DNA of 64,000 bases from a virus (IMGVR_UViG_3300005077_000012:1-64000), one strand, 5' to 3'. Numbered from the stretch's first letter, positions 34,128 through 62,284 are shown. Program-made: numbers and translations. Notes: generated from the sequence alone by a model not told the origin.

Positions 34128-34128
34128 G

Positions 34129-35190: not shown

Positions 35191-35194
35191 TTAT

Positions 35195-35902
35195 CTATTC
35201 CTCATAGAATATAGTAATTATAAATGATTGACTTAATATATTTCCACTTTCTGTCGGATGAAGGGTTACTACGATATTTGTTGCACTATAGGTTACTCTC
35301 CATCGATACTCCGCTGTAAATTCGCCTAATGAAACATATTCAGAAGCAGCGGTACTATAAACGTGTCCTGTTACAGATATAATTTTTGAAGCTGTTAATC
35401 CATGAGCAATTTGAACATATCCCCCTTCTGCTTCTGCTGTTGTTCCGGTTAATCTTTTCATCTTTATTTTTGGAACAGTTGAATCAACTCCCCCTAATTG
35501 AGTATATCCATTGACAGATAGTGTAGTTGCCGGACTCGTTGTACCTATCCCGACATTACCCCCGGCCCCATTTAAAATCAGATTATTCGATGACATACCC
35601 CCTGCATCAATAACCTGCAATCCCCAATATGTATCTCCAGACGTAGCCCCAGAAGATACGACCAGTGCGGACCCAGTGCTTGACGTTACCCAATCCGTAT
35701 TGAGGAGTGCCAACGCATCCGACATTCCAGATGCGTTCTTAACCACCAACGTACTCGGCGCAGTTGTCGCATTCGTTACACCGATCCCTAACCTCTGATT
35801 GGCAGTATCAATAACCAGAGTAGTCAATGTCTCCAGATTATTTTTAACAGACAGTATGTCTCCCGTTACTGGTGATATGGTTAGTGTTCTGAGTGTACTC
35901 AT
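35195..35902 (-). CDS. Fibre protein
   Basis: RLGIG and GNVGIGT repeats, C-terminal HGL...KIISV domain; AT-rich. Confidence 0.7.
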   Translation of the reverse strand: MSTLRTLTISPVTGDILSVKNNLETLTTLVIDTANQRLGIGVTNATTAPSTLVVKNASGMSDALALLNTDWVTSSTGSALVVSSGATSGDTYWGLQVIDAGGMSSNNLILNGAGGNVGIGTTSPATTLSVNGYTQLGGVDSTVPKIKMKRLTGTTAEAEGGYVQIAHGLTASKIISVTGHVYSTAASEYVSLGEFTAEYRWRVTYSATNIVVTLHPTESGNILSQSFIITIFYEE

Positions 35903-45639: not shown

Positions 45640-46305
45640 TTACTGAACGCTCTTGATCAGGGCAACGTGCCGCTCATCAAGGGGTATGTTTTTATTGAGT
45701 CTGCCCTCGATCTTTGTGACATCGAGAACGTCGAGCTTGCCTGCTTTGCAGAGCTTCATCGCTTTGTCGAGAATTTCGACACGGGACAGTGCGGAGGCCG
45801 CTTCCACAGCCTCAAACCTGTCACCGGACTTCCTGAGCACGGACCGTGACGGTACCGGCGCATCGCCGATCTTCTCAACGGTGTCCCGGACGGCCTTCTG
45901 CATCTCGGCAGACGCCACCGCGAACTGGACCTGCGCCTTGCTCAGAGCCGCAACGTCCTTAATGCTTTTCTGCATGGTGCTCACTGCCGCGTTCACCGCA
46001 GCGAACTTCTCGTCGATCCCCTTCACCAGTGATCTCAGGAAGGGCTCGATATCCATCGCGGCACCCGCATCTGCATCGTCCTCAGCGACAAACTCTTCGA
46101 GAGACTTCATGGTCGGCTTCTTGCCGTCCTCTTCGTCATCCTCATCGCCTTCTGCTTCCTCTTCTTCGCCGGGGAATTCGTTCGCTTCCTCGTCGTCCTT
46201 TTTCGCCTTCTGGAACGAGTTGAGAGTAGTCTTCAGCGACTCCAAAGAGTCATTGAAGGACTTCTCCATATCCTCAAATCCAACGGCTTCTAATGCCTTT
46301 GTCAT
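45640..46305 (-). CDS. Capsid scaffold protein, putative
   Basis: 221 aa acidic coiled coil with about 10 x-x-K-[AS] motifs; lies between protease and MCP. Confidence 0.7.
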   Translation of the reverse strand: MTKALEAVGFEDMEKSFNDSLESLKTTLNSFQKAKKDDEEANEFPGEEEEAEGDEDDEEDGKKPTMKSLEEFVAEDDADAGAAMDIEPFLRSLVKGIDEKFAAVNAAVSTMQKSIKDVAALSKAQVQFAVASAEMQKAVRDTVEKIGDAPVPSRSVLRKSGDRFEAVEAASALSRVEILDKAMKLCKAGKLDVLDVTKIEGRLNKNIPLDERHVALIKSVQ

Positions 46306-46307
46306 TG

Positions 46308-47153
46308 CTATCCTCCAAAATAATTTTGTATTGTAGGCAATTTTCTTGTGATATATTGTATCAGCTCTGCTGATATGTTCGACGGGTACCCCCGGGACAG
46401 GATGAACTCCATCACGTCGTTATACGACTTGACCTTCCCGCTGGTGATCGCCGCCAGTAACGCGTCAAACACCCGACGGAGCTCCCCGTACGGGATCGAG
46501 TAGCCCTGCGCGTTGAACGTATCGCTCAGCTCCGATCCCTGTAAACTCTCCGGGGTCAACGCGCGCCCCCCGGTAAACGCCTCCGCATTGACCCCATCGC
46601 CTGCCATGAGGGCCTTCGCGAACTGCGCGAACGGGATGATCGAAACATGACCGAGCGTGCCGTCATTGACCGGCTTGTGTGTGATCGCGGTCTCATCCCA
46701 GATCACACGCATTATCATCCCCTTGACACCACCGGCGGACCCCTTCACTTTTTGGATTATTCCGCCGCCCACCGACGCACCGAGCTTCTTCGCCCCGGAC
46801 AGGATATTCTGCCAGAGACCCTGCGAAATCTTGTTCTCTTTATACAGGAACCCTTTTACCAGTGTTTCATTCCGGTCCGTAAATGCGACGTCACTCGGCT
46901 CGCCTATGATGTATTGAGGATCGTGAATCTGCTTGTGCTTGTGGTCCCACGACAGGACGCCGTGTGTCAGATAGTAATCTGCCGCCTCCTTCAGGGCTTT
47001 ACAGAAAACCACCTCAGAGTCCTGATCACGACTCTCATTCGACGCCTGCAGGTACACGTTCCACTTGCCGTCCTCCTCGACACCCTTAACAAGGGCCGAC
47101 GCAAACGGAGAGTAAAACTGATCGCCACCCGCTGCCTGTATTGTCCTGCTCAT
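46308..47153 (-). CDS. Prohead protease
   Basis: ASNESRDQDSE, SWDH, GEP, LGASVGG, AIT..PVN motifs of phage prohead serine proteases. Confidence 0.8.
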   Translation of the reverse strand: MSRTIQAAGGDQFYSPFASALVKGVEEDGKWNVYLQASNESRDQDSEVVFCKALKEAADYYLTHGVLSWDHKHKQIHDPQYIIGEPSDVAFTDRNETLVKGFLYKENKISQGLWQNILSGAKKLGASVGGGIIQKVKGSAGGVKGMIMRVIWDETAITHKPVNDGTLGHVSIIPFAQFAKALMAGDGVNAEAFTGGRALTPESLQGSELSDTFNAQGYSIPYGELRRVFDALLAAITSGKVKSYNDVMEFILSRGYPSNISAELIQYITRKLPTIQNYFGG

Positions 47154-47447: not shown

Positions 47448-47906
47448 TTATTCGACCTCGGACTGTAACGCATCCGAGACAGCGTCTGCAAAATTCCTCG
47501 AAACGCCCTCCAGCTCCTCGACCGCAGCCTCAAGATCGGCCTCGGCCTGCGCCTCGATCGGGGCCGTCAGGTGCTCGGGAATACCGAGGTCCTTCGGCTC
47601 CGTCAGGTCAGAGGTCCCCTTCAACATCCCGTCAACCTCCTCCCGGGTCTTCAGCCCGAGACGGACGGCCGCATACTTACTCCACTTCTCAGAATTCGCC
47701 GGGTCGTAGAAAACAACCGTCAGCGATCGCGACCCGTCATCGAAGTAACACTCCACGCCATTCCCGTACGAGTCAGACTTGAAATACGGACAGGCCCCGC
47801 ACTCCACGTTCAAAAACTCTTGTGTCAACTTGACGATCTTGTCGACATGGAAGCAGTACACCTGCCCCGACGCATCCGCCAGATTGATATGGTTCGTCCT
47901 TGCCAT
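47448..47906 (-). CDS. Hypothetical Cys-containing protein
   Basis: 152 aa, GGGAGG RBS, C..CP.F...G.EC.F motif, acidic tail. Confidence 0.65.
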   Translation of the reverse strand: MARTNHINLADASGQVYCFHVDKIVKLTQEFLNVECGACPYFKSDSYGNGVECYFDDGSRSLTVVFYDPANSEKWSKYAAVRLGLKTREEVDGMLKGTSDLTEPKDLGIPEHLTAPIEAQAEADLEAAVEELEGVSRNFADAVSDALQSEVE

Positions 47907-47917
47907 TGTAGTCCTCC

Positions 47918-50809
47918 CTACTTAAACGATACGTCGACCCACGCCACCGGCACGATCGCCTTCGGGTTGCGCACACACCACTCATCATGCTGCAGCGGAT
48001 TGCCGACCCCCGTATAACTCATAGACATCCCCTTCTTCCCGTATATTGTATCCCACTGAGAATCGTCCCGCTCACGGACGTGATCCCCGGGAGAGACTTT
48101 CCCCATCGACGTCCGGCACTGGAGCATAACCCCGGAACCGCTCCGGGAGAATGTCCCGGCCACGTACTGCGCGCTCTTCGAGCTCGACTTCGCGAAGTAG
48201 ATACCATCCCCGAGCAGACGCCCGTTCTTCGCCGAACCGACCCGCATCCCGCCTTTAATGATACTGGCCCCGGCCTGAAAGTCCGTTCCGTGGTACAGGT
48301 ACTGCTGATTGTCCTTTGCGTTCTCAATCGCTTTGTAGTCCCCGTAATAGTCGTGGTACATGACCTCCATGACCGCATTGACCTGCAACCGGTCTGAACT
48401 GTACCCGGACGACTGGTGACTCCAGTCCGCCTTGATCTTGTCCATCCACTCCTTCTTCCCGGAGTCGCCCTTCCCTTTCAGGACGATCGTCGGCATGGTC
48501 CGGTTCCCCTTCGTCTTCATTCCCATACTGATCGCGAGCTGTTCGGTTCTGATACCCTTGATCGCCGTGTGGTAGGCGTCTGACCCCAGCATGAGCTGAT
48601 CCTTCTTCACTGGATTGTTCGGTGCGTGCGGTTTCAGACGACCCCAGCTCCACTCCGGGATAACCCGGGACTTCTTCGCCAGAGACCGCACGTTCCAGTT
48701 TGCACCGACCGCATACATCAGACTGGCCGCAGCAACGCCCTGAACGTACTGTGCATTGTACCGGTGATACTCAGACACTGACGCAACCGTCGTGTGGAAC
48801 TTTCCCCGCAACAGGTTTTTTCTTACCGACTCATCGGTCTTCCCGAACTCTATCGCCGTACCAGACCGGTCCTTCTTCCACCCACCATACCCCTTGCTCG
48901 ACGAACGCCACCGCCGCGTCGACGGACGAACGGCAGTGCTCATCTTCTTACCCATGTAATACTTGACAAGGCCCATTGACCCCGGCATCGCGTCGCCGTA
49001 ATCCTTGAACCGGACATCAAAATTCACGACCGAGTTTGAGTACCGTCGATCGCTATCCCGCACCGCGCCGGTACATATTCGCTCCAACCCATTATCCAAA
49101 TCTACCAGAGAGTACATCTCCAGAGACATAGCATCTCGATACGGTGTAAACAAGTTCTTCACCGCCTGCATGGTAGACTTCTCGTTGATTGGATACTTCC
49201 CCAACGTCCTGCCCGCATCGATGATCGAGTCAAAATACTCCATCCCTTTCCCTACATATCCACCGGTATTCGGATAGGAGACGTTGATCCCGTTATTCCA
49301 CTTCACGGTCTTCGCGCGCATCATACTCTTCAGATCGTTCGCAATATCACGCCACGTTGCCTCAGGGTTCAGATGCACCTTTTTACTAACCCCGTTACCC
49401 CGCGCGACCGCTCCGAGCTCAACGTAGTCCCGTGACTGCAACCACGAATCTACGGAGTACGCCGAGTCCGGGACAACCACATACTTCTGCAGGAACGCAC
49501 TGATCGCCGGGTACTTCTTCCGAAGGGACTCCCCGGCAGCCTTCAGATCGTCATAACTGTACTGCTTCACCGGACCCGAATACGATGACCCAGACCATCC
49601 CGTATTCGCCACCTTCCCGTACTTCTCAAGCCACGGTTTGATAACCTTCTCACCATAGTCCGGATGCAATGCGCCCATTACAAAAGACGTGTACGTTTCA
49701 GAATCCCAATGCTGGTGTGAATTATAAACAACATCATCGATACCCAGCACCGTAAAAAACTCTTGTACCTTCGACGGCAGGTCCTTGTAAACGTCCCTCC
49801 AACGCTCGGTCACAGCAAGCAACTCCGCTCCCGGAATGATCGTGGAGACCAGTGCCCCCGGGAGCCGGTCAAGACTCTGCGTCCCCCGCAGAGAATAATC
49901 CAGCTCGCCCAGCTTCTCCAGCAGGCGCTTGTCATTTTCTTGCGCCTTCAGCAGGTTGATCCACCGCTGTGCAACCACCTGCGACTCCTCAACCTCACGA
50001 TCAACGGCCGCATCGATAGCGCCCTGATTATATCCGTACCAGTTCTTCTGGACATACTCCGTAACGCGCTTCTTGTATGCTGCGGTCTTCGCCTCCGCCA
50101 GAAACTCCTCCATCTTCGCCTGCACCTCTTCGAGAAACAGCGGGTCCTCCAGCCACTTTCCATCGGAGCCCATCGGTATATCCGGGGCGATCTTCCCGAA
50201 CTCGGTCTGCTGCTCCTTCGTCATCTTGAATATGTTGTCAAGGTTCTTCGACACATACTCCTCGGCCTCCTTGTTCAAGCAGAGCACACCCGTGATATCA
50301 CACAGGTCCCGGGCATCATCGCTGGCCTCACGCCAGTAGAGCTGGTGCTTCTTCGGTGCCTTGTCCAGCTCGGCGTCAGAGGGCCGATCGGAAGACACCG
50401 GGCTCGCCTGCCCGGACTTGCGCTTCTCTTCCTCCTCCTTCTTCTTTTTCTCCATGTTGTCTTTCATCTTGCCCAGACGTTTCTTGCGGGCCTGCTCGTC
50501 TTCGTATGCCTTGACGTCCGCAGGCGTGACCATGCCGTCGTACACCCACTTGCCGTTTGCGTCCTTCCGGACCCACTGCGCGTGCTTCGTCCCGAACCCG
50601 TGTATCTTCCGGGTCCCGATCGGGAGCGGAGCCCCTTTCCGCAGCGTTTCGAGAAAAATTACAAGGCGCGCCTTACTTATCCCGGCCATGCGCTTGTATA
50701 CTCCCATCACATAGGCGTAGTCGTCACCGCGCCCCTCCCGGGCGGCGGCCTCCTTTGCTTTCTCCCACTTCGCCTCGTCGACCGGCTTCCCGTGTATCTT
50801 CTTCGGCAT
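47918..50809 (-). CDS. Large head-associated protein with C-terminal PARP-like ADP-ribosyltransferase
   Basis: YLYHGT, GRLLGDGIYFAKSSSKSAQY, HDEW (H-Y-E triad); ATG 50809 with GGAGG RBS; N-terminal tag module. Confidence 0.85.
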   Translation of the reverse strand: MPKKIHGKPVDEAKWEKAKEAAAREGRGDDYAYVMGVYKRMAGISKARLVIFLETLRKGAPLPIGTRKIHGFGTKHAQWVRKDANGKWVYDGMVTPADVKAYEDEQARKKRLGKMKDNMEKKKKEEEEKRKSGQASPVSSDRPSDAELDKAPKKHQLYWREASDDARDLCDITGVLCLNKEAEEYVSKNLDNIFKMTKEQQTEFGKIAPDIPMGSDGKWLEDPLFLEEVQAKMEEFLAEAKTAAYKKRVTEYVQKNWYGYNQGAIDAAVDREVEESQVVAQRWINLLKAQENDKRLLEKLGELDYSLRGTQSLDRLPGALVSTIIPGAELLAVTERWRDVYKDLPSKVQEFFTVLGIDDVVYNSHQHWDSETYTSFVMGALHPDYGEKVIKPWLEKYGKVANTGWSGSSYSGPVKQYSYDDLKAAGESLRKKYPAISAFLQKYVVVPDSAYSVDSWLQSRDYVELGAVARGNGVSKKVHLNPEATWRDIANDLKSMMRAKTVKWNNGINVSYPNTGGYVGKGMEYFDSIIDAGRTLGKYPINEKSTMQAVKNLFTPYRDAMSLEMYSLVDLDNGLERICTGAVRDSDRRYSNSVVNFDVRFKDYGDAMPGSMGLVKYYMGKKMSTAVRPSTRRWRSSSKGYGGWKKDRSGTAIEFGKTDESVRKNLLRGKFHTTVASVSEYHRYNAQYVQGVAAASLMYAVGANWNVRSLAKKSRVIPEWSWGRLKPHAPNNPVKKDQLMLGSDAYHTAIKGIRTEQLAISMGMKTKGNRTMPTIVLKGKGDSGKKEWMDKIKADWSHQSSGYSSDRLQVNAVMEVMYHDYYGDYKAIENAKDNQQYLYHGTDFQAGASIIKGGMRVGSAKNGRLLGDGIYFAKSSSKSAQYVAGTFSRSGSGVMLQCRTSMGKVSPGDHVRERDDSQWDTIYGKKGMSMSYTGVGNPLQHDEWCVRNPKAIVPVAWVDVSFK

Positions 50810-50834
50810 GGCTATACCCCTCCAGTAATCTTGA

Positions 50835-51968
50835 TCATGCGCCCGCCTGCTTTGCCATCGCAGCGTCGAGCATATCATAGTATTTCTTCATACCCGGCGT
50901 ATACCGGGTCCATGTACACCTGCAGTGCGGGTGTTGCGTCCCGGCAGCAACCCACCACTCCCGGGCCTTCCGTCCAAAATTGTTCTTACCCGGCCAGATC
51001 GCGGTATACCGGGTCCCGTCAACCTCTATCGTATCATCACCACCGGACGGGGCCGCATCCAGCAGCACCACGATCCGTCCGTTGATGTGTGTGGCACAGA
51101 ACGTACAGGCCCCCGGCCCGGACACCCCACGCATGAACACGAACTCATCCGGAGACGTCACCTTCTCGGCCACCAGATACCCGTTATTAAAATTCGTCGC
51201 GGTCTCGGTCTCCGCGATCCTGCGCCAGTCCCGGTTGAGTGTTGAGAACGTATCGAACAGCTTCCGCTCGGTCTCCCGGGCCGTCAGGCGGTTCTTCTGC
51301 GCGTCCAGTATGGACGACACCACCGCCCGGCGCGCGCTGTCCGATATATCCTGTATCAACTCCCCGGTATGCACTTCGGAGAAGTCCCTAATGTTCCGGT
51401 AGACCTCGTCGGCCGTCAGCTTCTTTACCTCGGCGTCGACAGCAGGTTTCAGGTCAGTATACGTCTTGCTGATCTGGTCCTCGACCGGCATCCCCTGTAA
51501 TATCTTACCCAACGCCATCGCCCGAAGGACCAGAGACTGCTCGACCTCACCGAACAGGTACCCGAAAACACTGTCCAGATCGTGTGCAATCACCTCCCAC
51601 TCCGCCCGGGTCAGGGCCTGCCCGGTCGACGGGTTTATGTACGTCGTCCCGTTCAGGATGAACGGATCATCCCCCACGGCCTTGCGAAATTCATCGAAAT
51701 GGTCCCCCATCCCCTTCGCGACATCCAGCCTCAACCACTTCGTCGTAATCTCAGTCAGGACCCGCTGCAGCCCCGCCCGCACCTGATCCCGCAGAATATC
51801 GCTGAGCTCCTGCAGGGCCGGGTAGGGCGTCGGCTCGGTTTTCTCGGTATGGTTGTGTGCAACCTCGGCCGGGACCTTCAGGGCCTTCGACAGGGCCTCG
51901 ACGACTGCCCGGAGCTTCTGCTCCGCCTTGTCTTCCGGATTGTGTATCTCAATTATGATCTTTTCCAT
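50835..51968 (-). CDS. MuF / SPP1 gp7-like head morphogenesis protein
   Basis: RRIAETET...FNNG, C.FC, HPHCRC.W motifs. Confidence 0.85.
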   Translation of the reverse strand: MEKIIIEIHNPEDKAEQKLRAVVEALSKALKVPAEVAHNHTEKTEPTPYPALQELSDILRDQVRAGLQRVLTEITTKWLRLDVAKGMGDHFDEFRKAVGDDPFILNGTTYINPSTGQALTRAEWEVIAHDLDSVFGYLFGEVEQSLVLRAMALGKILQGMPVEDQISKTYTDLKPAVDAEVKKLTADEVYRNIRDFSEVHTGELIQDISDSARRAVVSSILDAQKNRLTARETERKLFDTFSTLNRDWRRIAETETATNFNNGYLVAEKVTSPDEFVFMRGVSGPGACTFCATHINGRIVVLLDAAPSGGDDTIEVDGTRYTAIWPGKNNFGRKAREWWVAAGTQHPHCRCTWTRYTPGMKKYYDMLDAAMAKQAGA

Positions 51969-52088: not shown

Positions 52089-54440
52089 TCAGAACAGTCT
52101 GTGCCGGAGCCCGACCACATACGCCAGACGCCGGATCGCTTTCAGCAGTTTCGGCCCGAAATGCTTTTTCAACAGGCCCTCGAACTTCCCGTCCTCAAAC
52201 ATCGCATAGGTCGGATCGACCTCCGGGAACCCCCAGCCGAACGGATTGTCCGCCGCGTCCCCCACCGCATCCATACGCTCGTCCGTCGTCGTATACTCCG
52301 GCTGCTTCGCCTTGTACCGGATAAACTGGTCAAAGGTCCGGGCGAACACCTCGTTGACGTCGCCCCAATACCGGGACCGCTTCGAGTAATAGTCGGAGTG
52401 TGTCTGCTTGCGGAATGAGTGTACGGTAACCTCGGACAGGTGCTGTGAATACATCTCGAACGCTCGGTCCACAACCTTTGCCGGTGCAAAACGTACCCGG
52501 TCAACGATCGATTTCAGATCGTCCACAGAATAGACTCCCTTCGTCTCCGATACGATCGCAGGACCATGCTTGTCCGGGTCATTCAACGCATTGCGCAGCG
52601 TCGAAAGGAACTCATCCGGCGTAACGGTTCCGTACCGATCATCCGCCTGATTAGCGTTGTGGAGCATGGCACGCAGGCTCGGCTCAACGATCTCAACGAA
52701 CTTCAGGACATCCAGACCCTTACGCCCGGCAAGGTCCGGGTGCGCCGTCAGGTACCCGCCGATTTCCGACAACGCCACGGCAGACGACTGATCGATGTAC
52801 GTCTTGAACGCCGCATGAGACGGATTGAATGTCTCCTTGATCTTCTGCTCAAGACCAGACGCCTTGACCCACTCCTTGAACTCGTCGACCAACACCTTCC
52901 CGCCCCGGTAAAAAAAGTAATGTCCCGCTTCGTGTACGATCGCCCCCGGGTACGACGGGGAGATATTCAACGAATGGTCCTTCTCGACGTAGAACCCGGC
53001 CGCCTTCTTCGACGCCTTCGCAATCCGCAGGATCATCTTCTTCCCGTCTGACGGAACGTAGTCCTTGAAATTGACCACGGACGAGATCGTCGAGAACACC
53101 TTGAACAATGCCCGCAGGCTCGGGGCCGACAGCTTCGCCTCCCTCCCGGGGATGATCGCATCGGTTGTGATCTCCAGACCGATCTCATCCCGGAACGCGG
53201 TGACGAGCTTCGCAATCTTCGGATCAGTCGCCATCAGGTGATCTTTATACCCGGCGGTCCCCTTGACGTACTTCATGATCCGCTTCTTTGAACTCTCATC
53301 CGCGAACTTGTTCAGGACCCCCTCGATCTTGTCGTACGGTATCGGAATGTACGGCAGAACGAGGATCGAACGCCGCGTCGGATTGACATCGGAGAACTGG
53401 AGTCCAACCCGGCCGTCAGTCATCACCATCGAACCGGTTATCCCCAACTTCCCGATCGGCTCACGCTGCATCGCATTGTAGGATTGCCTCAACTGCGCAG
53501 CGGCGGCAGTCGCATAACGCAGATTGGATATGGCGTTCCTCGAAGGAACATCCAGACCGGACTGCACACTCTCAAGGGCCATCAGGTCCTGATACAAGGT
53601 TCCCGCCGCGCCGATCGACTTCGAGTCCAACAGGCCGTCCTCGAAGTCCTTGAGCTGCTTCCACCCGGTATAAAAGTCTGCCGCGTCCGGCGGCTGCACT
53701 TTCTCCCGAACCGCGTCCGGGAGCGCGTCGAGTTTTTGCTGCAGGCTCTCCAGAACGGCCTTCAGCGCATACTCCATCGACGGAGCCGACTCATAATCCC
53801 ACGTTGCCGACATCGCGGCCTCGGCGTCCAGCCCGGGAACCTTCTTTTCCTCAGCCTTCTTCGGAACCACCTTCGGTTTCTCCGGCTTCGGCCGCGTCCA
53901 CATCGCCACCGACGGCCGCCCCATAATCTTCTCATCATCGTCCAACTGCACCCGGTCCCACGTCACGATCTCAGCGTTGGCGTCCTCCTTGCTCAGGCGG
54001 AAGCGTTCCTGCGCCTCCTCCAGTGTCAGGTTGTCATACTCGGTAACCGGGCTGCCGTCGACGTGCACAACGAACACACGGTGCGTGTTCGCACGCTTCG
54101 CCTTCGGAGCATCGGGCTTCTTCACCTCCGGGGCCTTCGACCCTTCCATGAGCTTGTGCTTCAGTACATATTTGACGATATCGGTGTCGCCCTTCAGGTC
54201 GTGCCCGACTTCGGCCTTCACCTTCTCGATGATCTCTTTGCGTCGGTCCGCAGTGAGCTTCGCCCACCAGTCGAGAACCTTTGCACGCTCAGGCCACGGC
54301 CGGGCACCCTCATGCACCCCATCAACGACCTCAACCCACTTCTTATCCGACGCCTTCCGATACTTCCGACCCTTCCATTCCCGGATCGTACCAACCGGGT
54401 ACGCCTTCCCTTTGATCATCAGTCTATAGATTTTTAGCAC
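52089..54440 (-). CDS. Head-associated zincin metallopeptidase / LPD1-like polyvalent-type protein
   Basis: IVHEAGH (HExxH) and downstream EVFARTFDQF; N-terminal tag module; GTG start with GGGGAG RBS. Confidence 0.7.
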   Translation of the reverse strand: MLKIYRLMIKGKAYPVGTIREWKGRKYRKASDKKWVEVVDGVHEGARPWPERAKVLDWWAKLTADRRKEIIEKVKAEVGHDLKGDTDIVKYVLKHKLMEGSKAPEVKKPDAPKAKRANTHRVFVVHVDGSPVTEYDNLTLEEAQERFRLSKEDANAEIVTWDRVQLDDDEKIMGRPSVAMWTRPKPEKPKVVPKKAEEKKVPGLDAEAAMSATWDYESAPSMEYALKAVLESLQQKLDALPDAVREKVQPPDAADFYTGWKQLKDFEDGLLDSKSIGAAGTLYQDLMALESVQSGLDVPSRNAISNLRYATAAAAQLRQSYNAMQREPIGKLGITGSMVMTDGRVGLQFSDVNPTRRSILVLPYIPIPYDKIEGVLNKFADESSKKRIMKYVKGTAGYKDHLMATDPKIAKLVTAFRDEIGLEITTDAIIPGREAKLSAPSLRALFKVFSTISSVVNFKDYVPSDGKKMILRIAKASKKAAGFYVEKDHSLNISPSYPGAIVHEAGHYFFYRGGKVLVDEFKEWVKASGLEQKIKETFNPSHAAFKTYIDQSSAVALSEIGGYLTAHPDLAGRKGLDVLKFVEIVEPSLRAMLHNANQADDRYGTVTPDEFLSTLRNALNDPDKHGPAIVSETKGVYSVDDLKSIVDRVRFAPAKVVDRAFEMYSQHLSEVTVHSFRKQTHSDYYSKRSRYWGDVNEVFARTFDQFIRYKAKQPEYTTTDERMDAVGDAADNPFGWGFPEVDPTYAMFEDGKFEGLLKKHFGPKLLKAIRRLAYVVGLRHRLF

Positions 54441-54441
54441 G

Positions 54442-55224
54442 CTACTCCCCCATCAGATCAGACATCAGCTTCTCCATCTCTCGGTCCAGCCCGCGCAGTT
54501 CCTCCGCCGTCGTCTGTGAAACCTTCCGCGCATGATACAGGATTTCCCGCAGACCCATCTGTATCTTCGTTACCTGCTCCATGTTCGCATCGAATAACTC
54601 CTCCCGGGTCACATCCGCCGCGTAGAAGTACAGATCGTTCAGGATGGAACTCGCCAGCGCAATCAACGACTCGACCTTCCCTTCACTGAAGGTCCGGAAC
54701 TCCACCTCGTCAAACTCCTCCATCGGGTGCTCCCGAAACATATTCCGAACCTCACGCAGCAACTGAGTCCGCAATTCAACCAACACCAGACGGTAGATAT
54801 TAAACGAGTCACACAGAGTCGCGTGCTGGATGGACTTCCGCTTCAACAGGTCGATGTATATCCCCTGCATCAACAGCAGCAACTGATCACCACGCTCCTC
54901 GGCATAACTCATCTGCCCGCGTAACAGCAGCACGTTCCTGATCTCCAGCTTCCGGGTCAAGAGCTTGACCGTCTGGTTCAGCATCGTCACAACATCCCGG
55001 GAATGAGGGCACATCGCGTGCGGGCTCTTGACAGGCTTCGCCTTCGCCCTTCCCGGAACCCCGTCACCACCGATGTCCAGCTCCTTACCGCCGCTCACGA
55101 TCCGCAGACCCCGACGGACGATCAGGATCGCAGAGTACCCCAGCATGAACGTCAGGCCGGACGCGAATACCATCTGAAACCACTTCGGCAAGTCATTGAG
55201 CCAGTCTATAAATGTCGTAAACAC
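54442..55224 (-). CDS. Membrane-anchored helical protein, hypothetical
   Basis: N-terminal hydrophobic helix FQMVFASGLTFMLGYSAILIV. Confidence 0.65.
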   Translation of the reverse strand: MFTTFIDWLNDLPKWFQMVFASGLTFMLGYSAILIVRRGLRIVSGGKELDIGGDGVPGRAKAKPVKSPHAMCPHSRDVVTMLNQTVKLLTRKLEIRNVLLLRGQMSYAEERGDQLLLLMQGIYIDLLKRKSIQHATLCDSFNIYRLVLVELRTQLLREVRNMFREHPMEEFDEVEFRTFSEGKVESLIALASSILNDLYFYAADVTREELFDANMEQVTKIQMGLREILYHARKVSQTTAEELRGLDREMEKLMSDLMGE

Positions 55225-55260: not shown

Positions 55261-58002
55261 TTAAATCCGGACCCACTGATCCGCTGCTTCTTTCCTGTAA
55301 CTCACCCCGGCGCGGGAACGCTGCGTCCCGATCGGGAGTGCTCCGCCCCGGTTGAGCTGCCAGTAGCGCTCCTCACGCTTGATACTCTTCGCGAGATCGT
55401 CCGGGAGCTCCTGCGACTTCTTCGCTTTCGCCTCACGGAACTTCTTCGCCACGAACGTCCCGGCGGCGTCAATGCTGGAGAACTCGCCCTGACTCTCCCC
55501 ACCACGCTCCACGGACACTTTACCGGAACCGTCGGTGTGCTTCTTCACGGACCACCACTCACCGTCAGGACCTTTTACTGTACCCGATGAATCTCCTTCC
55601 ATACTCTCAAGGATACCCTCGGCCTCGGCGGACAACCCGTCGTCCCCGGCAGGCTTCGCATCGGACTCATGTCTCTCTCCAGACGACACACCGTAGTTCT
55701 TCACATACTTCTCCACCGCCTCTTTAACAGTCTTTGACTGCGCCGTCGTCGAAAGGTAATGGAGCCGCTTTGTATCCGGGTCCTTATACCCCAGATCGAT
55801 CTGTCCGTGATTGGTCTTCCACCCCTTGATTGTATCCAGATTGATCTGAGGGTCTTTGACTCCCAGCTCCTTCAGCTTGTTTAAAATCGGACGTGCGTTA
55901 TACTTCGACCCACCACCAGCAGCGGGCTTGCCCTCTTTCACAGGCTCCCACTTCCCGGCAGCGACCTTCTTGTACTTCTTCCCCTTCCAGTCACGGATTG
56001 TCCCGGGCGGAAGTCCTCGGCCTTTGTTCAGCCAGACCACCGTGTCCTCCTTGCGCAGCTCCTCGATCGCCTTGCTCATGTCTTCCGTTTCGAGAAATTT
56101 TGCAGGCGTCTCTGCAACCTCAAGCTCCGCATCCGGAGTCGTCGTCCCCAGCCCGATATTCCGCTTCGCGTTCAACGTCAATTTCCACTCGTTCATAAAT
56201 TTCCTCGCCTTAAATAGTTTGCCCTGCCCTTCTGCCTCCATCGCAGCATCCCGGAGCTTCGACAGGTTTTTCTTCGCCTCTATATGTGTTTGTATCGCCT
56301 TCAGATCATCCGGATCAAGCTCCGACCGCAATGCCGCTTCAGGGACTTCCTTCCATCCCCCGGTCCTCGATGAATGATCATAGTACTCGGCCTCGACTTT
56401 GCCCTCGGCAGTCACCCGGTACCCATTCGCGTCCAGTATGTCCTTGATTGACTCAGGGTCCGCATCTGCCTTCGCCTGATCGTACCGCTCCTGCGCCGAC
56501 CCGCCGCGCTTCTTCTCCGCACGCTTCCCGGACTCATGCTTCTCGCGCTCGGCAGCCAGCTCCTTCTCCATCCGGGCCTTGTCATCCGCATCGCGCTTCG
56601 CCTGCGCTGCGTCGCGCTCGGCCTGCGCCTTCTTACCCGCCTCGTATTCCCCGGGAAGCTCGTCGATCCTCTTGCTGACCTTGTCCGCACCCTGCTTCTC
56701 GACGATCTTACCCAGCGCATTGATCGCCTTCTGCCTGCCCCCCAGCTCCCGGACAACCAGCATCCCGGTCTTCTTGTCAACCAGAGCGTACCCGGCCTTC
56801 CCGGACGGGAACGTCATGTCAAACCCCCAGAACTCCCGGTCAAGGTCCTTCACCTTCGCGGGTTTCATCGACGTACCCTCGGGGACCTTCACCACATTCC
56901 CCATGTGATCCGACACCTCGGTCGGGGCCTTCTCACCTTTCGCTGCGCCCTTGTCCGATTTCTTCACGGCAGCACCGGCCTGCTTGCTTGCCTCGGCAGC
57001 CCCGGCCACACCGCCGCCTTCGCTCGTCGCCTCGACGGTCTTCGCCGCGCCCTTGACGGCGGCCTCACCTTTGCCCGCAGCCTCTTTGATCCCACCCGCA
57101 ATGTCCTTAACCGAATCAGATATGCTCTGTGAACTCGACGTCGACGCCTGCTTCTTTAACCGCTCCAGCATCGCGTCCAGATTGGACTTGTCCTCACTGT
57201 CCGGCAGGTTCTTAATGTCCGACTTCAGCTTCTCATACGTCGCATCCCCGAGCTTCCCGCCCGTCTTCGGGGCCGCATCAGAATCACGCCCTCCCGTACG
57301 CACCGCCTTTACCGCAGCCTTCACCTGCTCATCAGAGGCCCCGGGCTTCAACTTCCCCGTAATTTTGTTAAGTGTATCCACGTCGAGTCCGATATAGTCA
57401 TTGCTCGCAGAATCCTCCGCGCTCCACGCCCGCATAACACGGTTCTCCAAAACCGTCTTTTCACCTTTATCCATCTGGGGCTCCCCAGCCTGCGCATCAC
57501 CTTCAGGCTCGCCCTTCGCTGCACCCTTGCCACTCTTCACGCGCACCCAGCCGGTGTCTCCCTTGCGGTACTTCTTTCCCTTCCATTCCCGGATAGTCCC
57601 GACCGGCAACGCCTTCCCCTTCTCCAGAGACTCCAGCTCTCGCAGACTCTTCGCTGCACTCTCCATCCTATCAAGACGGGTGTAATAGTCCGGTATCTCG
57701 GCCAGATGATCCCGCGCAATCTTCTCGGCCAGCTTCGGGTCATCGGTGTGCTCGGCCTCGACCTCGATCCCACGCTTCAACTGCTCCGGGTCCGGGCTCG
57801 TCTTCGCGGTCTGACTCCGGCCCTTACCAATGAAAGACCCCAGAATCGCATAGATCATCTCCTCGACCCCGTGCTTGTTCCACCCATGCGCCTCGGCCCA
57901 CTCATGGACCTCGTAGTCCTCCGGCTTCGGGTTCTCACTCAAGAATCGCTCAACCTGCAGCCTGCTCGGGCGTGCCTTATCGAGTTTTTGTACGCGTATC
58001 AT
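55261..58002 (-). CDS. Large Lys/Ala-rich head-associated protein with DUF5661-like N-terminal domain and three tag modules
   Basis: G..VE.EH..D...A.KIA.DHL.E.PDYY.RL motif (family recalled from memory); three P.GT modules. Confidence 0.65.
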   Translation of the reverse strand: MIRVQKLDKARPSRLQVERFLSENPKPEDYEVHEWAEAHGWNKHGVEEMIYAILGSFIGKGRSQTAKTSPDPEQLKRGIEVEAEHTDDPKLAEKIARDHLAEIPDYYTRLDRMESAAKSLRELESLEKGKALPVGTIREWKGKKYRKGDTGWVRVKSGKGAAKGEPEGDAQAGEPQMDKGEKTVLENRVMRAWSAEDSASNDYIGLDVDTLNKITGKLKPGASDEQVKAAVKAVRTGGRDSDAAPKTGGKLGDATYEKLKSDIKNLPDSEDKSNLDAMLERLKKQASTSSSQSISDSVKDIAGGIKEAAGKGEAAVKGAAKTVEATSEGGGVAGAAEASKQAGAAVKKSDKGAAKGEKAPTEVSDHMGNVVKVPEGTSMKPAKVKDLDREFWGFDMTFPSGKAGYALVDKKTGMLVVRELGGRQKAINALGKIVEKQGADKVSKRIDELPGEYEAGKKAQAERDAAQAKRDADDKARMEKELAAEREKHESGKRAEKKRGGSAQERYDQAKADADPESIKDILDANGYRVTAEGKVEAEYYDHSSRTGGWKEVPEAALRSELDPDDLKAIQTHIEAKKNLSKLRDAAMEAEGQGKLFKARKFMNEWKLTLNAKRNIGLGTTTPDAELEVAETPAKFLETEDMSKAIEELRKEDTVVWLNKGRGLPPGTIRDWKGKKYKKVAAGKWEPVKEGKPAAGGGSKYNARPILNKLKELGVKDPQINLDTIKGWKTNHGQIDLGYKDPDTKRLHYLSTTAQSKTVKEAVEKYVKNYGVSSGERHESDAKPAGDDGLSAEAEGILESMEGDSSGTVKGPDGEWWSVKKHTDGSGKVSVERGGESQGEFSSIDAAGTFVAKKFREAKAKKSQELPDDLAKSIKREERYWQLNRGGALPIGTQRSRAGVSYRKEAADQWVRI

Positions 58003-58240
58003 GTTTCTTGCCTCGCTTTGATTTTTTCATGCTTGAACCTGTATGACTAACGAGTGCCAGAACCTCCGGGATCGGAGAGCACCTGAGACACCCGTAAATA
58101 TAATTCCCAACACCGCCATGCCACGGACCAACTTCCACCCTGAACATCCACTCCCAGCGGAACGAACGCTCACACAACACACACCGTCTCCTCCGAAACG
58201 TGAACACCCTGTGCACCCGGGTCGGCCCACCAGCACGCAC
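57977..58240 (-). CDS. Small CxxC-containing hypothetical protein
   Basis: CVLC...CLRC; start uncertain. Confidence 0.4.
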   Translation of the reverse strand: MRAGGPTRVHRVFTFRRRRCVLCERSFRWEWMFRVEVGPWHGGVGNYIYGCLRCSPIPEVLALVSHTGSSMKKSKRGKKHDTRTKTR

Positions 58241-58506
58241 TACAGGACCTCCATCAATATCCCGCAGTACTGACCCACGTACAGCTCGCGCTCCACCGGT
58301 CCCTCGAACGGGCTATCGTACGTCAAGACCCGCTGCTTGTCCGACTCGACAAGGTCCTCGGGCCCGACCTGATCCCCATCCACATCACAATTCGCTCCGA
58401 CATAAAACGCATCCGGGTCCAGCGTCTCATACCATGCACCCATCCCGATCAGCGTGCGATTTTCCTCGATACCGCGCCAGTACTCCACAATGTTATACGC
58501 CATCAC
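58240..58506 (-). CDS. Hypothetical protein
   Basis: 88 aa acidic ORF with overlapping start/stop coupling. Confidence 0.6.
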   Translation of the reverse strand: MMAYNIVEYWRGIEENRTLIGMGAWYETLDPDAFYVGANCDVDGDQVGPEDLVESDKQRVLTYDSPFEGPVERELYVGQYCGILMEVL

Positions 58507-60536
58507 CGCAACTCCCGCATTATAGTCTGATAGATCGTCTCGAAGTGTCCGTTCCAGATCGCTCCACCCTGATCGTACTTCATGAAATTGGCCTTGAACT
58601 TCTTCATGCCTTCAACCCCGTCCTTCTGGACGACCTGATTTTCAAGGAACCGCTTTTTCTGTTCAGGCTTCAGCTTGTATACATACTGCAGGTTGTCCCG
58701 TATATGCTGATCAGTCTCCGGCGTCGTCTTATATCCCCGGGCAAGGAACTTGAACGACCTGAGCGTATAGCGCGGAGAGTGTGGTAACATCTTCGGATTG
58801 CAGAACTCCAGCGTCTTGCCCTCCAGTGCCGAGAGACCCTTCCCGGTCGCATCAATCATCACCCCGGTCAACGGGTCCAACTGCAGCGAGTTGATCGTGA
58901 AGTCCCGGGACTCAGCGTCGCCCTTCAGCCGCCAGCCCTTGACCTGCCACGATGGAACGTCGTCAGAGTGTTTGTGGACCGGCGTGATATCCACATCGAC
59001 CCCGGCGTCCTTGATAGTCACCAACCCCAGCCGGTCATTCAACGACCACGTATTCGCCCACGCCGGATTGAGTCCCTTGACTATGTGCTGCAGCTCGCCG
59101 TCAGAGCAGTTCGCAATGAAGTCAACATCCTTCGAGTCCCCGCCCTGCAGGAAGTCCCGGACGGTCCCACCCACGATCGTCAACGTGAACCCGGCAGCCT
59201 TGAACGTCTCACACAGCTTCCGGTACGTCACCTTCGATTTACCAATACGCGTCTCCATGACCTTCGCCACCGACGCGGCCATCTCCCCAGAGATATGAAA
59301 CAGGTTTTTATCTTCCAAACCATCATACAGCGAGTGCTCCTGTATTACCCCGTCAGGCTTAACGTTCTGCCAGCGTGAGTCGATCACCCGGCCATCGCTC
59401 ATCTTGATCAGTGCAGTTCCCTTGTTCCCCAGAGCAACCAGCTTCCCACGCTGACCGGAATACTTCTGGTGCCCCTGCCCGGTATAGACCACACTCTGCC
59501 CCTCGATCATCCGGTCCCGACGCGTGGTATCCTTTATCAACTGCTGCGCGGCCCCGGCGGCCACATCCTGCAGCTTCCCCACCTTGACACTGACCGCATG
59601 GTCCTGTAGCGCCTGCGCCGCTGCCTTGTTCTGCGCCGGTGTCGGGGCCTTCGCGCCCGGGTTTACCACACCGTCGTACAGCCACTTCCCGTCTGCACCC
59701 TTCTTGTACCAATAGTTCCCGTACTGCTTGCGTGTCCCGATCGGATCGCCGCCCTTCTGCATTTCGAGATATTTTGCAGGCCCGAACCGCATCGTCCTGA
59801 AATTAAACAAAGGGACCATCATCCCGATCCCCTTCGATAGATCATCCAGATCATCAGCACTCTTCTTGTACCCCAGCCGCTCGCTCAGGGCTTCCTTCGC
59901 GGCCTGCTTGCGCTGCGCATCCCGCTCAGCCCACTGCGAACCCTTTGCGCTCTCGTCCGGGCCCTTCGCCGGAGCTTCGCCATCCTTCACCTTAACAATC
60001 TTCACCGCGCCCTTGATCGACTGGACGTTCCCCTGACCTTCCGGGGCTTCAGGATTGAAACGGGTCTGCCACTGCATCGCGAACTTGCCATCCCGGGAAT
60101 ACAGCCGCTTCTGCTCATGGTCCAGACGCCCACCCCGGAACAACTTCCGGGACTCGTCCCCCAGCTCGCCCATCGCCTCCTCAAACCGGTGCGACAGCTT
60201 CGCAGGCGTGTTCACGTACGCCGTCGCCATGTCTTCCTTGTCCTCAGTGGACATCTCCCCGGACGACGGGTCCCCGGGCTTGTCCGATCCACCCCCGGGA
60301 CGCTCGGCACCCTTTTCCTTCCCAGCACCCAGCGGGGACCACTGCCCCTCGGCAACCTTCCGATACTTTGTTCCACCCCAATCAGCAACGGTCCCGACAG
60401 GCATCCGCTTGCCCGCCTTCACGAACGCCTCCGCGTCAACGCAGTTAACCCCGTGGTACACAGGGCCAGACAGGTCGTCTATCATTTCGAGAATTTTTGC
60501 AGGTGCCACAACCGGAAAGTCTAATATTCGTGCCAT
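58503..60536 (-). CDS. Head-associated class II (CCA/poly(A) polymerase-type) nucleotidyltransferase
   Basis: IVGGTVRDFL...KDVDF, DAESRDFTINSL, PRYTLRSFKF; two tag modules and a KOW-like segment upstream. Confidence 0.85.
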   Translation of the reverse strand: MARILDFPVVAPAKILEMIDDLSGPVYHGVNCVDAEAFVKAGKRMPVGTVADWGGTKYRKVAEGQWSPLGAGKEKGAERPGGGSDKPGDPSSGEMSTEDKEDMATAYVNTPAKLSHRFEEAMGELGDESRKLFRGGRLDHEQKRLYSRDGKFAMQWQTRFNPEAPEGQGNVQSIKGAVKIVKVKDGEAPAKGPDESAKGSQWAERDAQRKQAAKEALSERLGYKKSADDLDDLSKGIGMMVPLFNFRTMRFGPAKYLEMQKGGDPIGTRKQYGNYWYKKGADGKWLYDGVVNPGAKAPTPAQNKAAAQALQDHAVSVKVGKLQDVAAGAAQQLIKDTTRRDRMIEGQSVVYTGQGHQKYSGQRGKLVALGNKGTALIKMSDGRVIDSRWQNVKPDGVIQEHSLYDGLEDKNLFHISGEMAASVAKVMETRIGKSKVTYRKLCETFKAAGFTLTIVGGTVRDFLQGGDSKDVDFIANCSDGELQHIVKGLNPAWANTWSLNDRLGLVTIKDAGVDVDITPVHKHSDDVPSWQVKGWRLKGDAESRDFTINSLQLDPLTGVMIDATGKGLSALEGKTLEFCNPKMLPHSPRYTLRSFKFLARGYKTTPETDQHIRDNLQYVYKLKPEQKKRFLENQVVQKDGVEGMKKFKANFMKYDQGGAIWNGHFETIYQTIMRELR

Positions 60537-60647: not shown

Positions 60648-62231
60648 TCACTGGACGATTATACGCAGGACGCGCTCGTCTCCCATTGACTTCTCAAACG
60701 CGGCCCGCCAGTCTTCTCCGGGCTCCTGCCCATCTTCAGCACCATCGCCACCCGGCTCTCCGCCGTCCCCCGGCAGCATCTCCTCACCGGGGACGCCTCC
60801 AGCTTCCGGAAGAGCTCCCTCATCTCCGCCATCGTCAGGCGCGCCTCCGGGCCCCCCCATCGTCTCGGCCTGCTTCGACTGTGCGTATATCTGAACAGCC
60901 TGCGGATTGAGAACAACATTCGCGTAATCGTCTTCGATCGGATCATCACCGTCCTCCTCCCGCAGCTCATTGATAGTCTTCGTTGTCTCGATCATCTGCC
61001 GCCGTATCTGCATCCGCTGGAGCTCGTCTTCCCGCTCGATCCCGGTGAACTCAAACGACCACTCCGTCGTGACCTTGCGTATGATCTTACCGACGTGCTG
61101 CTCAGCGAACGCCAGCAGTGAACTCAGGCCGCGATCCCGGGACGCCTTAATCCTCGGCTCCCCACTCTCCCCGATGATCGACTGACTGTCATCCGCCTTG
61201 ATCCCGATCTCAGCAAGGTCGATCGAGAACACCGCACCGATAACCGACGACAGGAACATCATGAGCTTGTGATATTCCATGTCCCGGTTCGACTGCCCGA
61301 GATTTTTGAAGTCCATGCCGACGCCCTCTTTCCCGCTCGGCAGGATCGGGATATTCCACGCTCCCCCGGCCCCGCTCATGGCCGCGTACCAGTACCGGCG
61401 GATTGAGTCCATCTGCGTCTGCCCGATGTCCCCCATTACCGATATGAACCCCTTCGGCACCCGGTCCCGGACGAGCTGGTCCCGGATGTAGTTATACCCG
61501 AACAGCAGCGTCGTGATCAGGTCAATGCACTGCTCAACCGGAGAGTAACCCCAGCCACGGAACCGCAGGTCCACCCGCTTGTTCTTGTAGTCGAACAGCA
61601 GGTCCTCGGACGTGTACTGGTTGTAAATTTTGTTGTCGATCTCTTGAACGAACCTGATGTCCTTCTTGAATGGACTCTGGTCCACCTCGGTAGTCACGCG
61701 CTTGATGTACGCCCCGTCCAGCAACCAGAACGCGATCGCCTCGCCCTTCCGGTTGTACTGTATCTCGGTCGCCACCTGATCGATGACCAGCGTCTCCCGG
61801 ATCAGCATCGACAGGTAGTCGCTGAAGTCGTCCTCGCGGTCTGCATCATACTTGAACCCGGTCTGATCTATGAAGTTATGCAGCTCCCGGATCAGGGCCT
61901 GATCCCCCTTGACCGACTCCTTCCCGTCCCCGTCCATCGTCCGGATCAAATGAAACCCGCGCTTGCCACGCTCCTCGGTGAACTTCGTGAACGGCAGGCA
62001 CTGGTCGATCCGTGCGTTGACGATTGCGTTGATCAGCGGAATACGGTCCACGGTGTTGCGGATCGTAATGTAATTTATTCGGAGCAGCTTCTCCCGGACT
62101 CCCCGGAGTGCCCCTGACTGGACGAACGACATATACTCGGGCATACTCAGCAGTGATTGGAGCTTCGCTGCAGTCGCCTCCATGTTGATCAAGGCCGACC
62201 GCCTCTCTCCACGCTTCGTACGCTTCGCCAT
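60648..62231 (-). CDS. Portal protein
   Basis: RETLVIDQVATE, GWGYSP.EQ, P.G.IS, MDF..L.QSNRDMEY motifs; ATG 62231 preferred because the promoter overlaps 62282. Confidence 0.9.
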   Translation of the reverse strand: MAKRTKRGERRSALINMEATAAKLQSLLSMPEYMSFVQSGALRGVREKLLRINYITIRNTVDRIPLINAIVNARIDQCLPFTKFTEERGKRGFHLIRTMDGDGKESVKGDQALIRELHNFIDQTGFKYDADREDDFSDYLSMLIRETLVIDQVATEIQYNRKGEAIAFWLLDGAYIKRVTTEVDQSPFKKDIRFVQEIDNKIYNQYTSEDLLFDYKNKRVDLRFRGWGYSPVEQCIDLITTLLFGYNYIRDQLVRDRVPKGFISVMGDIGQTQMDSIRRYWYAAMSGAGGAWNIPILPSGKEGVGMDFKNLGQSNRDMEYHKLMMFLSSVIGAVFSIDLAEIGIKADDSQSIIGESGEPRIKASRDRGLSSLLAFAEQHVGKIIRKVTTEWSFEFTGIEREDELQRMQIRRQMIETTKTINELREEDGDDPIEDDYANVVLNPQAVQIYAQSKQAETMGGPGGAPDDGGDEGALPEAGGVPGEEMLPGDGGEPGGDGAEDGQEPGEDWRAAFEKSMGDERVLRIIVQ

Positions 62232-62284
62232 TCGTTTCTCCGATGTGTGTGTAGTGTGTGAGCCTTCCCTCTCTCTCACCATCT

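Follow-up and report, generated by a model that had tools for sequence, protein, structure and literature searches.

We analysed a 64,000-nucleotide stretch of DNA from a virus (IMGVR_UViG_3300005077_000012:1-64000; hereafter the window), in which a gene directly following the portal gene encodes a 677-residue protein that is a class II nucleotidyltransferase (NTase) by fold and catalytic core, but lacks the features that define CCA-adding enzymes and the poly(A) polymerase PcnB. Its enzyme domain stands at the C terminus, behind a small beta-barrel, an N-terminal module and two copies of a short sequence element (the tag) that recurs in other proteins of the head-gene block. Overall, with a probability of roughly 0.5, we read the protein as an active, non-CCA NTase effector that is packaged into the phage head, injected and directed at RNA 3' ends. 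The parts of this reading differ in strength: conserved active-site residues make an active non-CCA NTase effector highly probable, gene position and shared tags indicate that the protein is probably virion cargo, and RNA 3' ends are a tentative choice of substrate, somewhat short of even odds, made by analogy with structural relatives. The minus strand carries all long open reading frames (ORFs) of the window, and the motif coordinates given here were verified by translation.

58503..60536, minus strand: whole gene, 677 residues plus stop; tag 1, N-terminal module, tag 2, beta-barrel, class II NTase head and neck (ORF list, Pfam, AF2 models)
60327..60422, minus strand: tag 1, residues 39-70, core MPVGTVADWGGTKYRKVAEGQW (tag hidden Markov model (HMM), domain E 1.6e-15)
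59766..60326, minus strand: N-terminal module, function not assigned, residues 71-257 (L001 homology)
59661..59765, minus strand: tag 2, residues 258-292, core DPIGTRKQYGNYWYKKGADGKWLYDG (tag HMM, domain E 4.5e-13)
59343..59525, minus strand: KOW/SH3/Tudor-like beta-barrel, residues ~338-398 (conservation, AF2 model, VIA-align)
58797..59291, minus strand: class II NTase head domain, residues ~416-580 (PF01743, Foldseek, VIA-align)
59121..59171, minus strand: motif A, GGTVRD...DVD (GGTVRDFLQGGDSKDVD), with catalytic D470 and D472 (translation)
58989..58991, minus strand: third catalytic carboxylate, D516, in VDVDITP (58980-59000) (translation)
58887..58910, minus strand: motif B, SRDFTINS, canonically RRDFTINA (translation)
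58746..58781, minus strand: motif D position, HSPRYTLRSFKF, standing for EDxxRxLRAxRF (translation and alignments)
58506..58796, minus strand: neck-like helical region up to the C terminus, residues 581-677; four helices with a predicted local distance difference test score (pLDDT) above 95

The preliminary description had taken the catalytic head to be intact, and this was borne out by sequence and predicted structure alike. The Pfam PolyA_pol head (PF01743) matches residues 453-576 with 63.7 bits (E 2.8e-17; cut-off 23), and PHROGs assigns the protein to 'tRNA nucleotidyltransferase' families. An AF2 model of residues 330-677, built from 56 sequences, reached a mean pLDDT of 96.6 and a predicted template modelling score (pTM) of 0.92, and Foldseek matched it to 5hc9, 7otr and 4wby at E 4e-12. 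Class II CCA/A-adding enzymes and Escherichia coli poly(A) polymerase (PAP) ranked first both in Foldseek and in an exhaustive VIA-align search, with 220-233 residues aligned; Z was 19.2, 18.9, 18.3 and 17.8 across the Thermotoga maritima, Aquifex aeolicus and Bacillus stearothermophilus CCA/A-adding enzymes and E. coli PAP, the top match being 3h37 of T. maritima (root-mean-square deviation (rmsd) 2.9 over 226 residues). The CCA/A-adding enzymes (3h37/5hc9, 4wby/1vfg, 1miv) thus share the head and neck fold at Z 17.8-19.2 and an rmsd of about 3 over 220-226 residues, together with motif A, the third carboxylate and the RD..N of motif B. The two-domain poly(A) polymerase TENT5B scored Z 17.8 over 249 residues, and every solved relative with a Z above 11 in this search acts on RNA 3' ends. 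Across 12 relatives of the family defined below, with NTase domains 42%-69% identical, G456, G457, R460, D461, D470, D472, D516, R544, D545 and N549 are invariant, and the catalytic positions of motif A are also invariant in all 56 aligned sequences; in canonical enzymes the counterpart of D516 is the E of xEITT. The two-metal centre and the residues that contact the triphosphate and ribose are retained, and the catalytic core is, as judged from these conserved positions, intact.

EDxxR serves CCA-adding enzymes and poly(A) polymerases as an amino-acid template for CTP and ATP, and the body and tail domains hold and measure the tRNA; the EDxxR residues of class II enzymes are reportedly what reads C and A. 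Both elements are gone from the window protein. In HMMER searches against PDB sequences, LPHSPRYTLRSFKF falls opposite FIEDPVRILRALRF in 4wby/1vfg, the A-adding enzyme of Aquifex. When canonical enzymes of bacteria and phages were aligned with the protein by MAFFT, the phage ones being full-length tRNA nucleotidyltransferases of Acidianus tailed spindle virus and Rhodobacter phage RcXuper, the same position came to lie under EDPLRxLRAxRF. Motif D therefore reads HSPRY, with H586 for E, S587 for D and Y590 for R, as the preliminary description had stated, and the replacement proved to be common to about 21 relatives from phage contigs and to a wider non-canonical clade. That description had also named EDxxR at another register as an outcome that would overturn the idea; downstream of the GG motif, no [ED]D..R in any register was found in the 677-residue protein or in 20 of its 21 relatives. 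A candidate shift of the motif to the next helix (PETDQHIR) was rejected, as this segment aligns with the canonical helix after motif D and is not conserved. Most family members read x-[AST]-P-[RV]-[YN]-x-L-R-A-F-K-F at the motif D position. Motif B is [STA]RD in all members but one (RRD) and SRD here, and motif E, read by eye, lacks the canonical pattern S.ER...E..KIL and has a family-specific invariant RQI..KDG..G instead.

The loss of the body and tail, likewise proposed in the preliminary description, was borne out: the protein stops 80 residues past motif D, and canonical enzymes run about 200 residues beyond that end. CCA enzymes have 372-415 residues, of which the structural alignment takes in no more than 1-256 to 1-281, so that in the model head and neck are present and body and tail are absent. 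The NCBIfam CCA/PcnB equivalogs scored 38-53 bits against the 290-439 required, and only the first half of the profiles was matched (TIGR02692, 53.5 versus 438.8; NF009814, 38 versus 290; NF041569, 16.3 versus 1440; the PcnB models TIGR01942, 39 versus 305.65, and NF008634, 16.7 versus 702). Pfam found no match to the PcnB-type regions PF12627 and PF12626 in the 677 residues. In template motif, body and tail and equivalog scores alike, the protein departs from CCA enzymes and from PcnB. Compared with class II CCA/A-adding enzymes it adds an N-terminal beta-barrel and tags, and EDxxR has become HSPRY, RRD has become SRD and motif E (by eye) differs. PcnB (3aql/3aqm) shares the head and neck fold (Z 18.3 over 233 residues) and is template-independent with no need for tRNA, but unlike the window protein it keeps an EDxxR-type motif as well as its body, RNA-binding and Arg-rich C-terminal regions. 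TENT5/FAM46 proteins (6jyj, 6w36) are of similar size and likewise consist of an NTase and a helical part, with no RNA-binding domain of their own besides (Z 17.8, 249 of 329 residues); the likeness is one of fold, at 10%-12% identity, and these eukaryotic proteins lack the barrel, the tags and the phage context.

The C-terminal 350 residues are modelled as a self-contained unit, in which a KOW/SH3-like barrel is packed on the class II NTase head and neck; the conserved unit starts further upstream, from the barrel at residues ~338-398, than the preliminary description had placed it. The barrel occupies residues 9-68 of the 330-677 model with pLDDT above 93, and the high pTM suggests that it is packed rigidly on the enzyme. 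VIA-align matched it to the NusG/Spt5 KOW, L21e and Tudor folds at Z 6.0-6.9, values that are modest yet span the whole of this small domain, with an rmsd of 1.6-2.3 over about 49-56 residues for the closest structural matches. Pfam gave a weak L21e match (E 0.035). In the family alignment, G346, V349 and G353 do not vary, and Q347 and Y351 hardly do.

A word-indexed search recovered 11 relatives with NTase domains 42%-69% identical, and an exhaustive phmmer search of 1.84 billion representatives recovered 16 clusters at E <= 1e-30, followed by a gap to 2.5e-29 and below. The barrel and NTase unit was C-terminal in all 16 clusters, and the conserved architecture is a tag, a variable insert, the KOW/SH3-like barrel and the NTase. 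A scan of 185,579 prokaryote species, each represented by one genome, recovered no relative of the family, and NTase matches in phage records were at most ~32% identical. The nearest named Atlas clusters are viral 257-307-residue PolyA_pol 'hypothetical proteins', and Foldseek finds T7-like phage NTases. A short phage PolyA_pol protein, Gp22 of Klebsiella phage fHe-Kpn01, has 182 residues and is toxic in E. coli (PMC7291057). Like the window protein, Gp22 and similar short phage PolyA_pol proteins are truncated class II-like phage NTases; they stand alone, whereas the window protein is tagged, multi-module, encoded in the head block and equipped with a conserved barrel.

In a FastTree phylogeny of 153 domains, the family formed a group of 21 domains (support 0.996) inside a larger group of 65, in a sample that consisted of the 150 best hits of one search, was biased towards the query and gave a deep node support of 0.59. 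None of the 65 group domains has a canonical EDxxR, and 48 canonical domains fall outside the group. Other members of the wider group are C-terminal domains of 1016- and 1916-residue proteins from another phage lineage, tandem copies in giant bacterial proteins, and proteins of ~360 residues. The last are the closest relatives outside phages; one of them, P0056, aligns end to end with residues 346-677 and so also covers the barrel (25% identity, E 6e-22). The ~360-residue barrel and NTase genes are each followed by a gene for a NACHT NTPase of ~645-660 residues on all three contigs long enough to judge (L008 5094-8097, L031 6001-9008 and the P0032 contig), and these pairs (P0056, P0066, P0032) sit in P4-like or helix-turn-helix-rich mobile islands. 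The proteins resemble the window unit in EDxxR loss and in a KF..RG[YF] signature; they differ in being stand-alone and without tags, and are themselves uncharacterised. PADLOC v2 returned no match for the NTase unit or four distant relatives and has no model for the NACHT pairs, which look like a candidate two-gene defence system that is undescribed. The distant relative P0028 carried a 'faint' precomputed Gad2 mark.

The giant bacterial proteins of the wider group, P0024 (7704 residues, Sorangium), P0028 (L006 8001-12362) and P0035, hold two to four tandem non-canonical class II NTase domains. Such proteins also carry SLH domains or a C-terminal EndoU nuclease, which hints at surface or toxin-delivery roles.

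Beyond the enzyme itself, the case for packaging is built on the tags and on gene order. The preliminary description had recognised two head tags, and both are true copies of a seven-copy motif. An HMM of the seven copies matched only four large post-portal proteins in the genome (E 5e-14 to 6e-44, whole protein), and the next best of all six-frame ORFs had an E of 4.5; the tag-bearing proteins of the block include PARP-like, zincin and Lys/Ala-rich proteins. In related phages, the HMM matched the equivalent post-portal proteins, including inorganic pyrophosphatase (InPase) and ART-PolyVal proteins. In the full-length model each tag is a three-stranded beta-meander (block-mean pLDDT about 71-88) between low-confidence linkers, with strands E50-53, E56-62 and E65-68 in tag 1 (about 78-88) and E269-272, E275-279 and E285-291 in tag 2. 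Neither the tags on their own nor the C-terminal helices had a Pfam match at E up to 10. A reading of the tag as a WW domain, from its LPxG start and two aromatic anchors, was set aside on account of its different spacing and the lack of a Pfam WW match. An NCBIfam UBP nucleoid-protein match of tag 2 (E 0.009) was treated as chance. The portal C terminus (60648-60900, minus strand) ends in a very acidic Gly/Pro/Asp/Glu-rich tail of ~80 residues and the tags are strongly basic; contact between the two is conceivable.

The presence of two tags in one protein is explained by gene fusion. The related phage L001 has, between portal and NTase, a separate gene for a 484-residue protein, whose first 297 residues match residues 9-285 at 53% identity, and the rest of the window protein matches the 437-residue L001 NTase protein at 66%-69%. 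By this comparison the window gene is a fusion of two neighbouring tagged genes with its junction at tag 2, which is the NTase gene's own N-terminal tag; a tag stands at the N terminus of most full-length family members. A two-tag, 681-residue version exists independently in L010. The N-terminal module is mostly low-confidence or disordered with some helices (AF2, pLDDT mostly below 60) and has no Pfam match, and against the L010 InPase protein the tag alone aligns. A homologue search with residues 1-300 gave the query alone, which reflects a limit of the search, since the 484-residue L001 protein is a clear BLASTP homologue. The 677-residue protein has one recognisable enzyme domain and one module without an assigned function. 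Among other family members, one carries a Zeta_toxin/AAA_33 kinase fused to the barrel and NTase unit, and three have HExxH inserts (by eye).

The window belongs to a virus record of 87,219 bp, with a completeness rating of 96%, in which the NTase gene lies inside the portal-to-capsid block. Gene contexts were sampled from about seven phage lineages, and the portal-NTase order is kept in related phages whose contigs include the portal. In L001/L002, L003 and L010 the order is portal, one gene, NTase, small ORFs and a DUF5661 giant protein; in L004 the genes downstream of the NTase keep to this order and lead on to a Zeta-toxin/AAA_33 kinase protein, with the portal outside view. ART-PolyVal and PARP proteins lie further along in L001 and L010, the PARP proteins at the same place as a 986-residue PARP protein of the window. 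A distant lineage with the 1016- and 1916-residue proteins has portal, (InPase), X-NTase, three small ORFs and a giant protein. In L010 the gene between portal and NTase (9163-9981) is a tagged inorganic pyrophosphatase (InPase PF18823, E 1.5e-35), and in the distant P0078 lineage the gene immediately upstream of that for the NTase-bearing protein again encodes an InPase (L025 2493-4010); both are of the polyvalent type. Polyvalent-type domains in head-gene contexts have been predicted to be packaged and injected, and InPase could clear pyrophosphate, an inhibitor of NTases (Iyer et al. 2017, PMC5512222); by that argument, InPase adjacency fits a pyrophosphate-releasing reaction.

Polyvalent and other virion-delivered effectors (PMC5512222; T4 Alt; MuF-fused toxins) are, as here, large enzyme-bearing proteins encoded with portal and head genes, and the ART-PolyVal, LPD1, InPase, zincin, PARP and Zeta-kinase modules of the neighbours and relatives are those of polyvalent proteins; the effectors described here are split over several tag-sharing proteins, as opposed to one giant polypeptide or a MuF fusion. 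The text of PMC5512222 reports only minimal Pol-beta NTases, in conjugative-element proteins, and contains neither 'CCA' nor 'polyA'; a class II NTase is therefore not among the cargo types in the text of that 2017 survey.

Taken together, we envisage a template-independent nucleotidyltransferase with a relaxed or different nucleotide choice, which would hold its substrate in a non-tRNA-specific way, the barrel being the likely substrate- or target-binding part. Its portal-to-capsid position, the shared tag and the polyvalent-type modules in relatives suggest that the protein would be packed into the head and delivered with the DNA. Early in infection it might then add nucleotides to host RNA 3' ends, in the manner of a poly(A) polymerase or TENT5, and so disable or mark the RNA, a guess prompted by the RNA 3'-end activity of the solved relatives above Z 11 and by the TENT5-like two-domain form. 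The preliminary description had proposed an injected enzyme with changed chemistry; the head-module context fits that proposal, and the injection step is kept here as a prediction. A side-chain template in EDxxR is the textbook account of nucleotide choice, and a conserved, active-looking branch has discarded both the template and the tRNA-binding domains. The shared tag and the head-module position point to a modular system that loads diverse enzymes into phage particles, and the NACHT-paired relatives suggest that the same enzyme unit also serves candidate defence systems; knowledge of the substrate would inform both phage take-over and bacterial immunity.

Several points weigh against this interpretation. 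The clade picture depends on the 150 best hits and a FastTree phylogeny with weak deep support (0.59), and there is no cultured relative, the capsid protein being at most ~31% identical to that of any isolate. Virion presence is predicted from sequence, and by sequence an enzyme that is made late and stays in the cell could not be told apart from cargo. The RNA acceptor is suggested only by the fold's known relatives, and with D and R gone from motif D, the acceptor might also be something other than a nucleic acid, or the donor an unusual one. An InPase neighbour was seen in only two of about seven contexts and not in this genome, in which the sole InPase match was sub-threshold (15.3 bits, E 8.4e-4), in a 756-residue ORF (30727-32997, minus strand); that match (31729-31932, minus strand) lies outside the head block.

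A broader extension of the reading is possible, and we hold it as doubtful: the barrel and NTase would be an undescribed conflict effector used on both sides, with a NACHT-sensor partner in mobile islands and, in this phage lineage, a new short beta-meander address tag for capsid loading that allows cargo enzymes (NTase, PARP, ART, zincin, pyrophosphatase, kinase) to be swapped by recombination at the tags. Once injected, the enzyme would perform untemplated non-CCA addition, for example blocking the 3' ends of tRNA or other RNA.

Other explanations have to be set against the proposed packaged RNA-directed effector. The enzyme might instead counter host defences by nucleotidylating a protein or small molecule, or by making or consuming a nucleotide signal, without extending RNA. 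Phage NTase-fold precedents exist in Gad2, which acts against Gabija by a mechanism that is not known (bioRxiv 10.1101/2023.05.01.538930), and in the Bcp1 NTase, which makes a competing cGAMP (bioRxiv 10.1101/2025.06.06.658234), and the loss of base-templating residues and RNA-holding domains is compatible with a different acceptor. The adjoining cargo genes are protein-modifying (PARP, zincin), and a pyrophosphatase neighbour could also act on nucleotide signals (PMC5512222). However, Gad2 and Bcp1 belong to other NTase families, the Bcp1-type GS..SDxD motifs are absent here, PADLOC gave no match and no other family was matched, and the solved relatives above Z 11 all work on RNA 3' ends; we regard a non-RNA counter-defence role as unlikely, if worth keeping in view.

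It is similarly not the expected outcome, in our judgement, that the protein stays out of the particle, as a late intracellular enzyme or a head-assembly factor of the morphogenesis operon whose tags have some other shared role. Gene position is by itself no proof of packaging, yet in several diverged phages the tag occurs solely on large proteins with enzyme domains that are encoded between portal and protease, modular swapping at the tags fits an address label, and ART-PolyVal, LPD1, InPase and zincin modules define predicted virion-delivered polyvalent proteins (PMC5512222).

Quite improbable is a DNA terminal transferase that adds nucleotides to 3' ends, either of the linear genome once injected or of breaks in host DNA, and so shields them from exonucleases. 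Such an enzyme, encoded beside the portal, would travel with the DNA end if packaged, its SRD has lost one of the two arginines of motif B, which might loosen ribose discrimination, and the very basic tags include the one with the faint nucleoid-associated protein match (E 0.009). Against this, R544 and D545 of motif B are invariant, the nucleoid match reaches 16 bits against a cut-off of 90 in one of seven tags, and we know of no class II enzyme that prefers DNA primers.

Repair of tRNA 3' (CCA) ends cut by defence nucleases, with the barrel replacing body and tail in tRNA binding, was among the possibilities raised in the preliminary description and is here very unlikely, more so than any other enzymatic reading. 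CCA-adding enzymes do provide the fold and the best structural matches, jumbo phages are known to encode them for RNA repair (PMC7824862), and nucleases that cut tRNA 3' tails exist, Cas12a3 among them (PMC12851939). Nevertheless, throughout the family other residues stand in for the E, D and R of EDxxR, the body and tail are likewise lost across the family, and the scores lie far under every CCA equivalog cut-off. The genome, whose tRNA content had been singled out beforehand as informative, contains no tRNA or tmRNA genes in its 87,219 bp, and no polynucleotide kinase (PNK)-type (AAA_33) kinase, RNA ligase or RtcB was found in it. That the domain is catalytically dead and kept as a structural or binding scaffold, a role conceivable for the related non-canonical domains that occur in tandem in giant and SLH proteins, is scarcely credible, given that GG, RD..N and the three catalytic carboxylates do not vary in the family.

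The neighbouring genes of the portal-to-capsid block were as follows.

60648-62282, minus strand: portal
58240..58506, minus strand: 88-residue acidic protein; its GTG start and the NTase stop overlap (GTGA)
57977-58240, minus strand: small Zn-ribbon protein (CxxC...CxxC)
55261-58002, minus strand: 913-residue protein with DUF5661
54442-55224, minus strand: 260-residue protein
52089-54440, minus strand: 783-residue protein (zincin), with HEAGH and a weak LPD1 match
50835-51968, minus strand: 377-residue minor-head/MuF-like protein (weak)
47918-50878, minus strand: 986-residue tagged protein with a PARP catalytic domain (PF00644, E 2.5e-14)
47448-47906, minus strand: 152-residue protein
46308-47153, minus strand: prohead protease
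45640-46305, minus strand: 221-residue scaffold-like protein
44235-45620, minus strand: major capsid protein

The 88-residue acidic protein has no Pfam or PHROG match, and homologues of it (22%-72% identity) lie directly after the NTase gene in L001 (72%), L003, L004 and L010; it could be a candidate partner, inhibitor or chaperone of the NTase. The small Zn-ribbon ORF overlaps the start of the 913-residue gene and is 52% identical to a 71-residue protein at the same place in L001, and for this reason is a real gene, one that may escape a simple ORF list. A megablast search with 20 kb against isolated phages gave no match. Elsewhere in the window, a stretch of about 4 kb (34001-38000) has a G+C content of 0.42-0.49, down from about 0.55, and may be a recently acquired segment.

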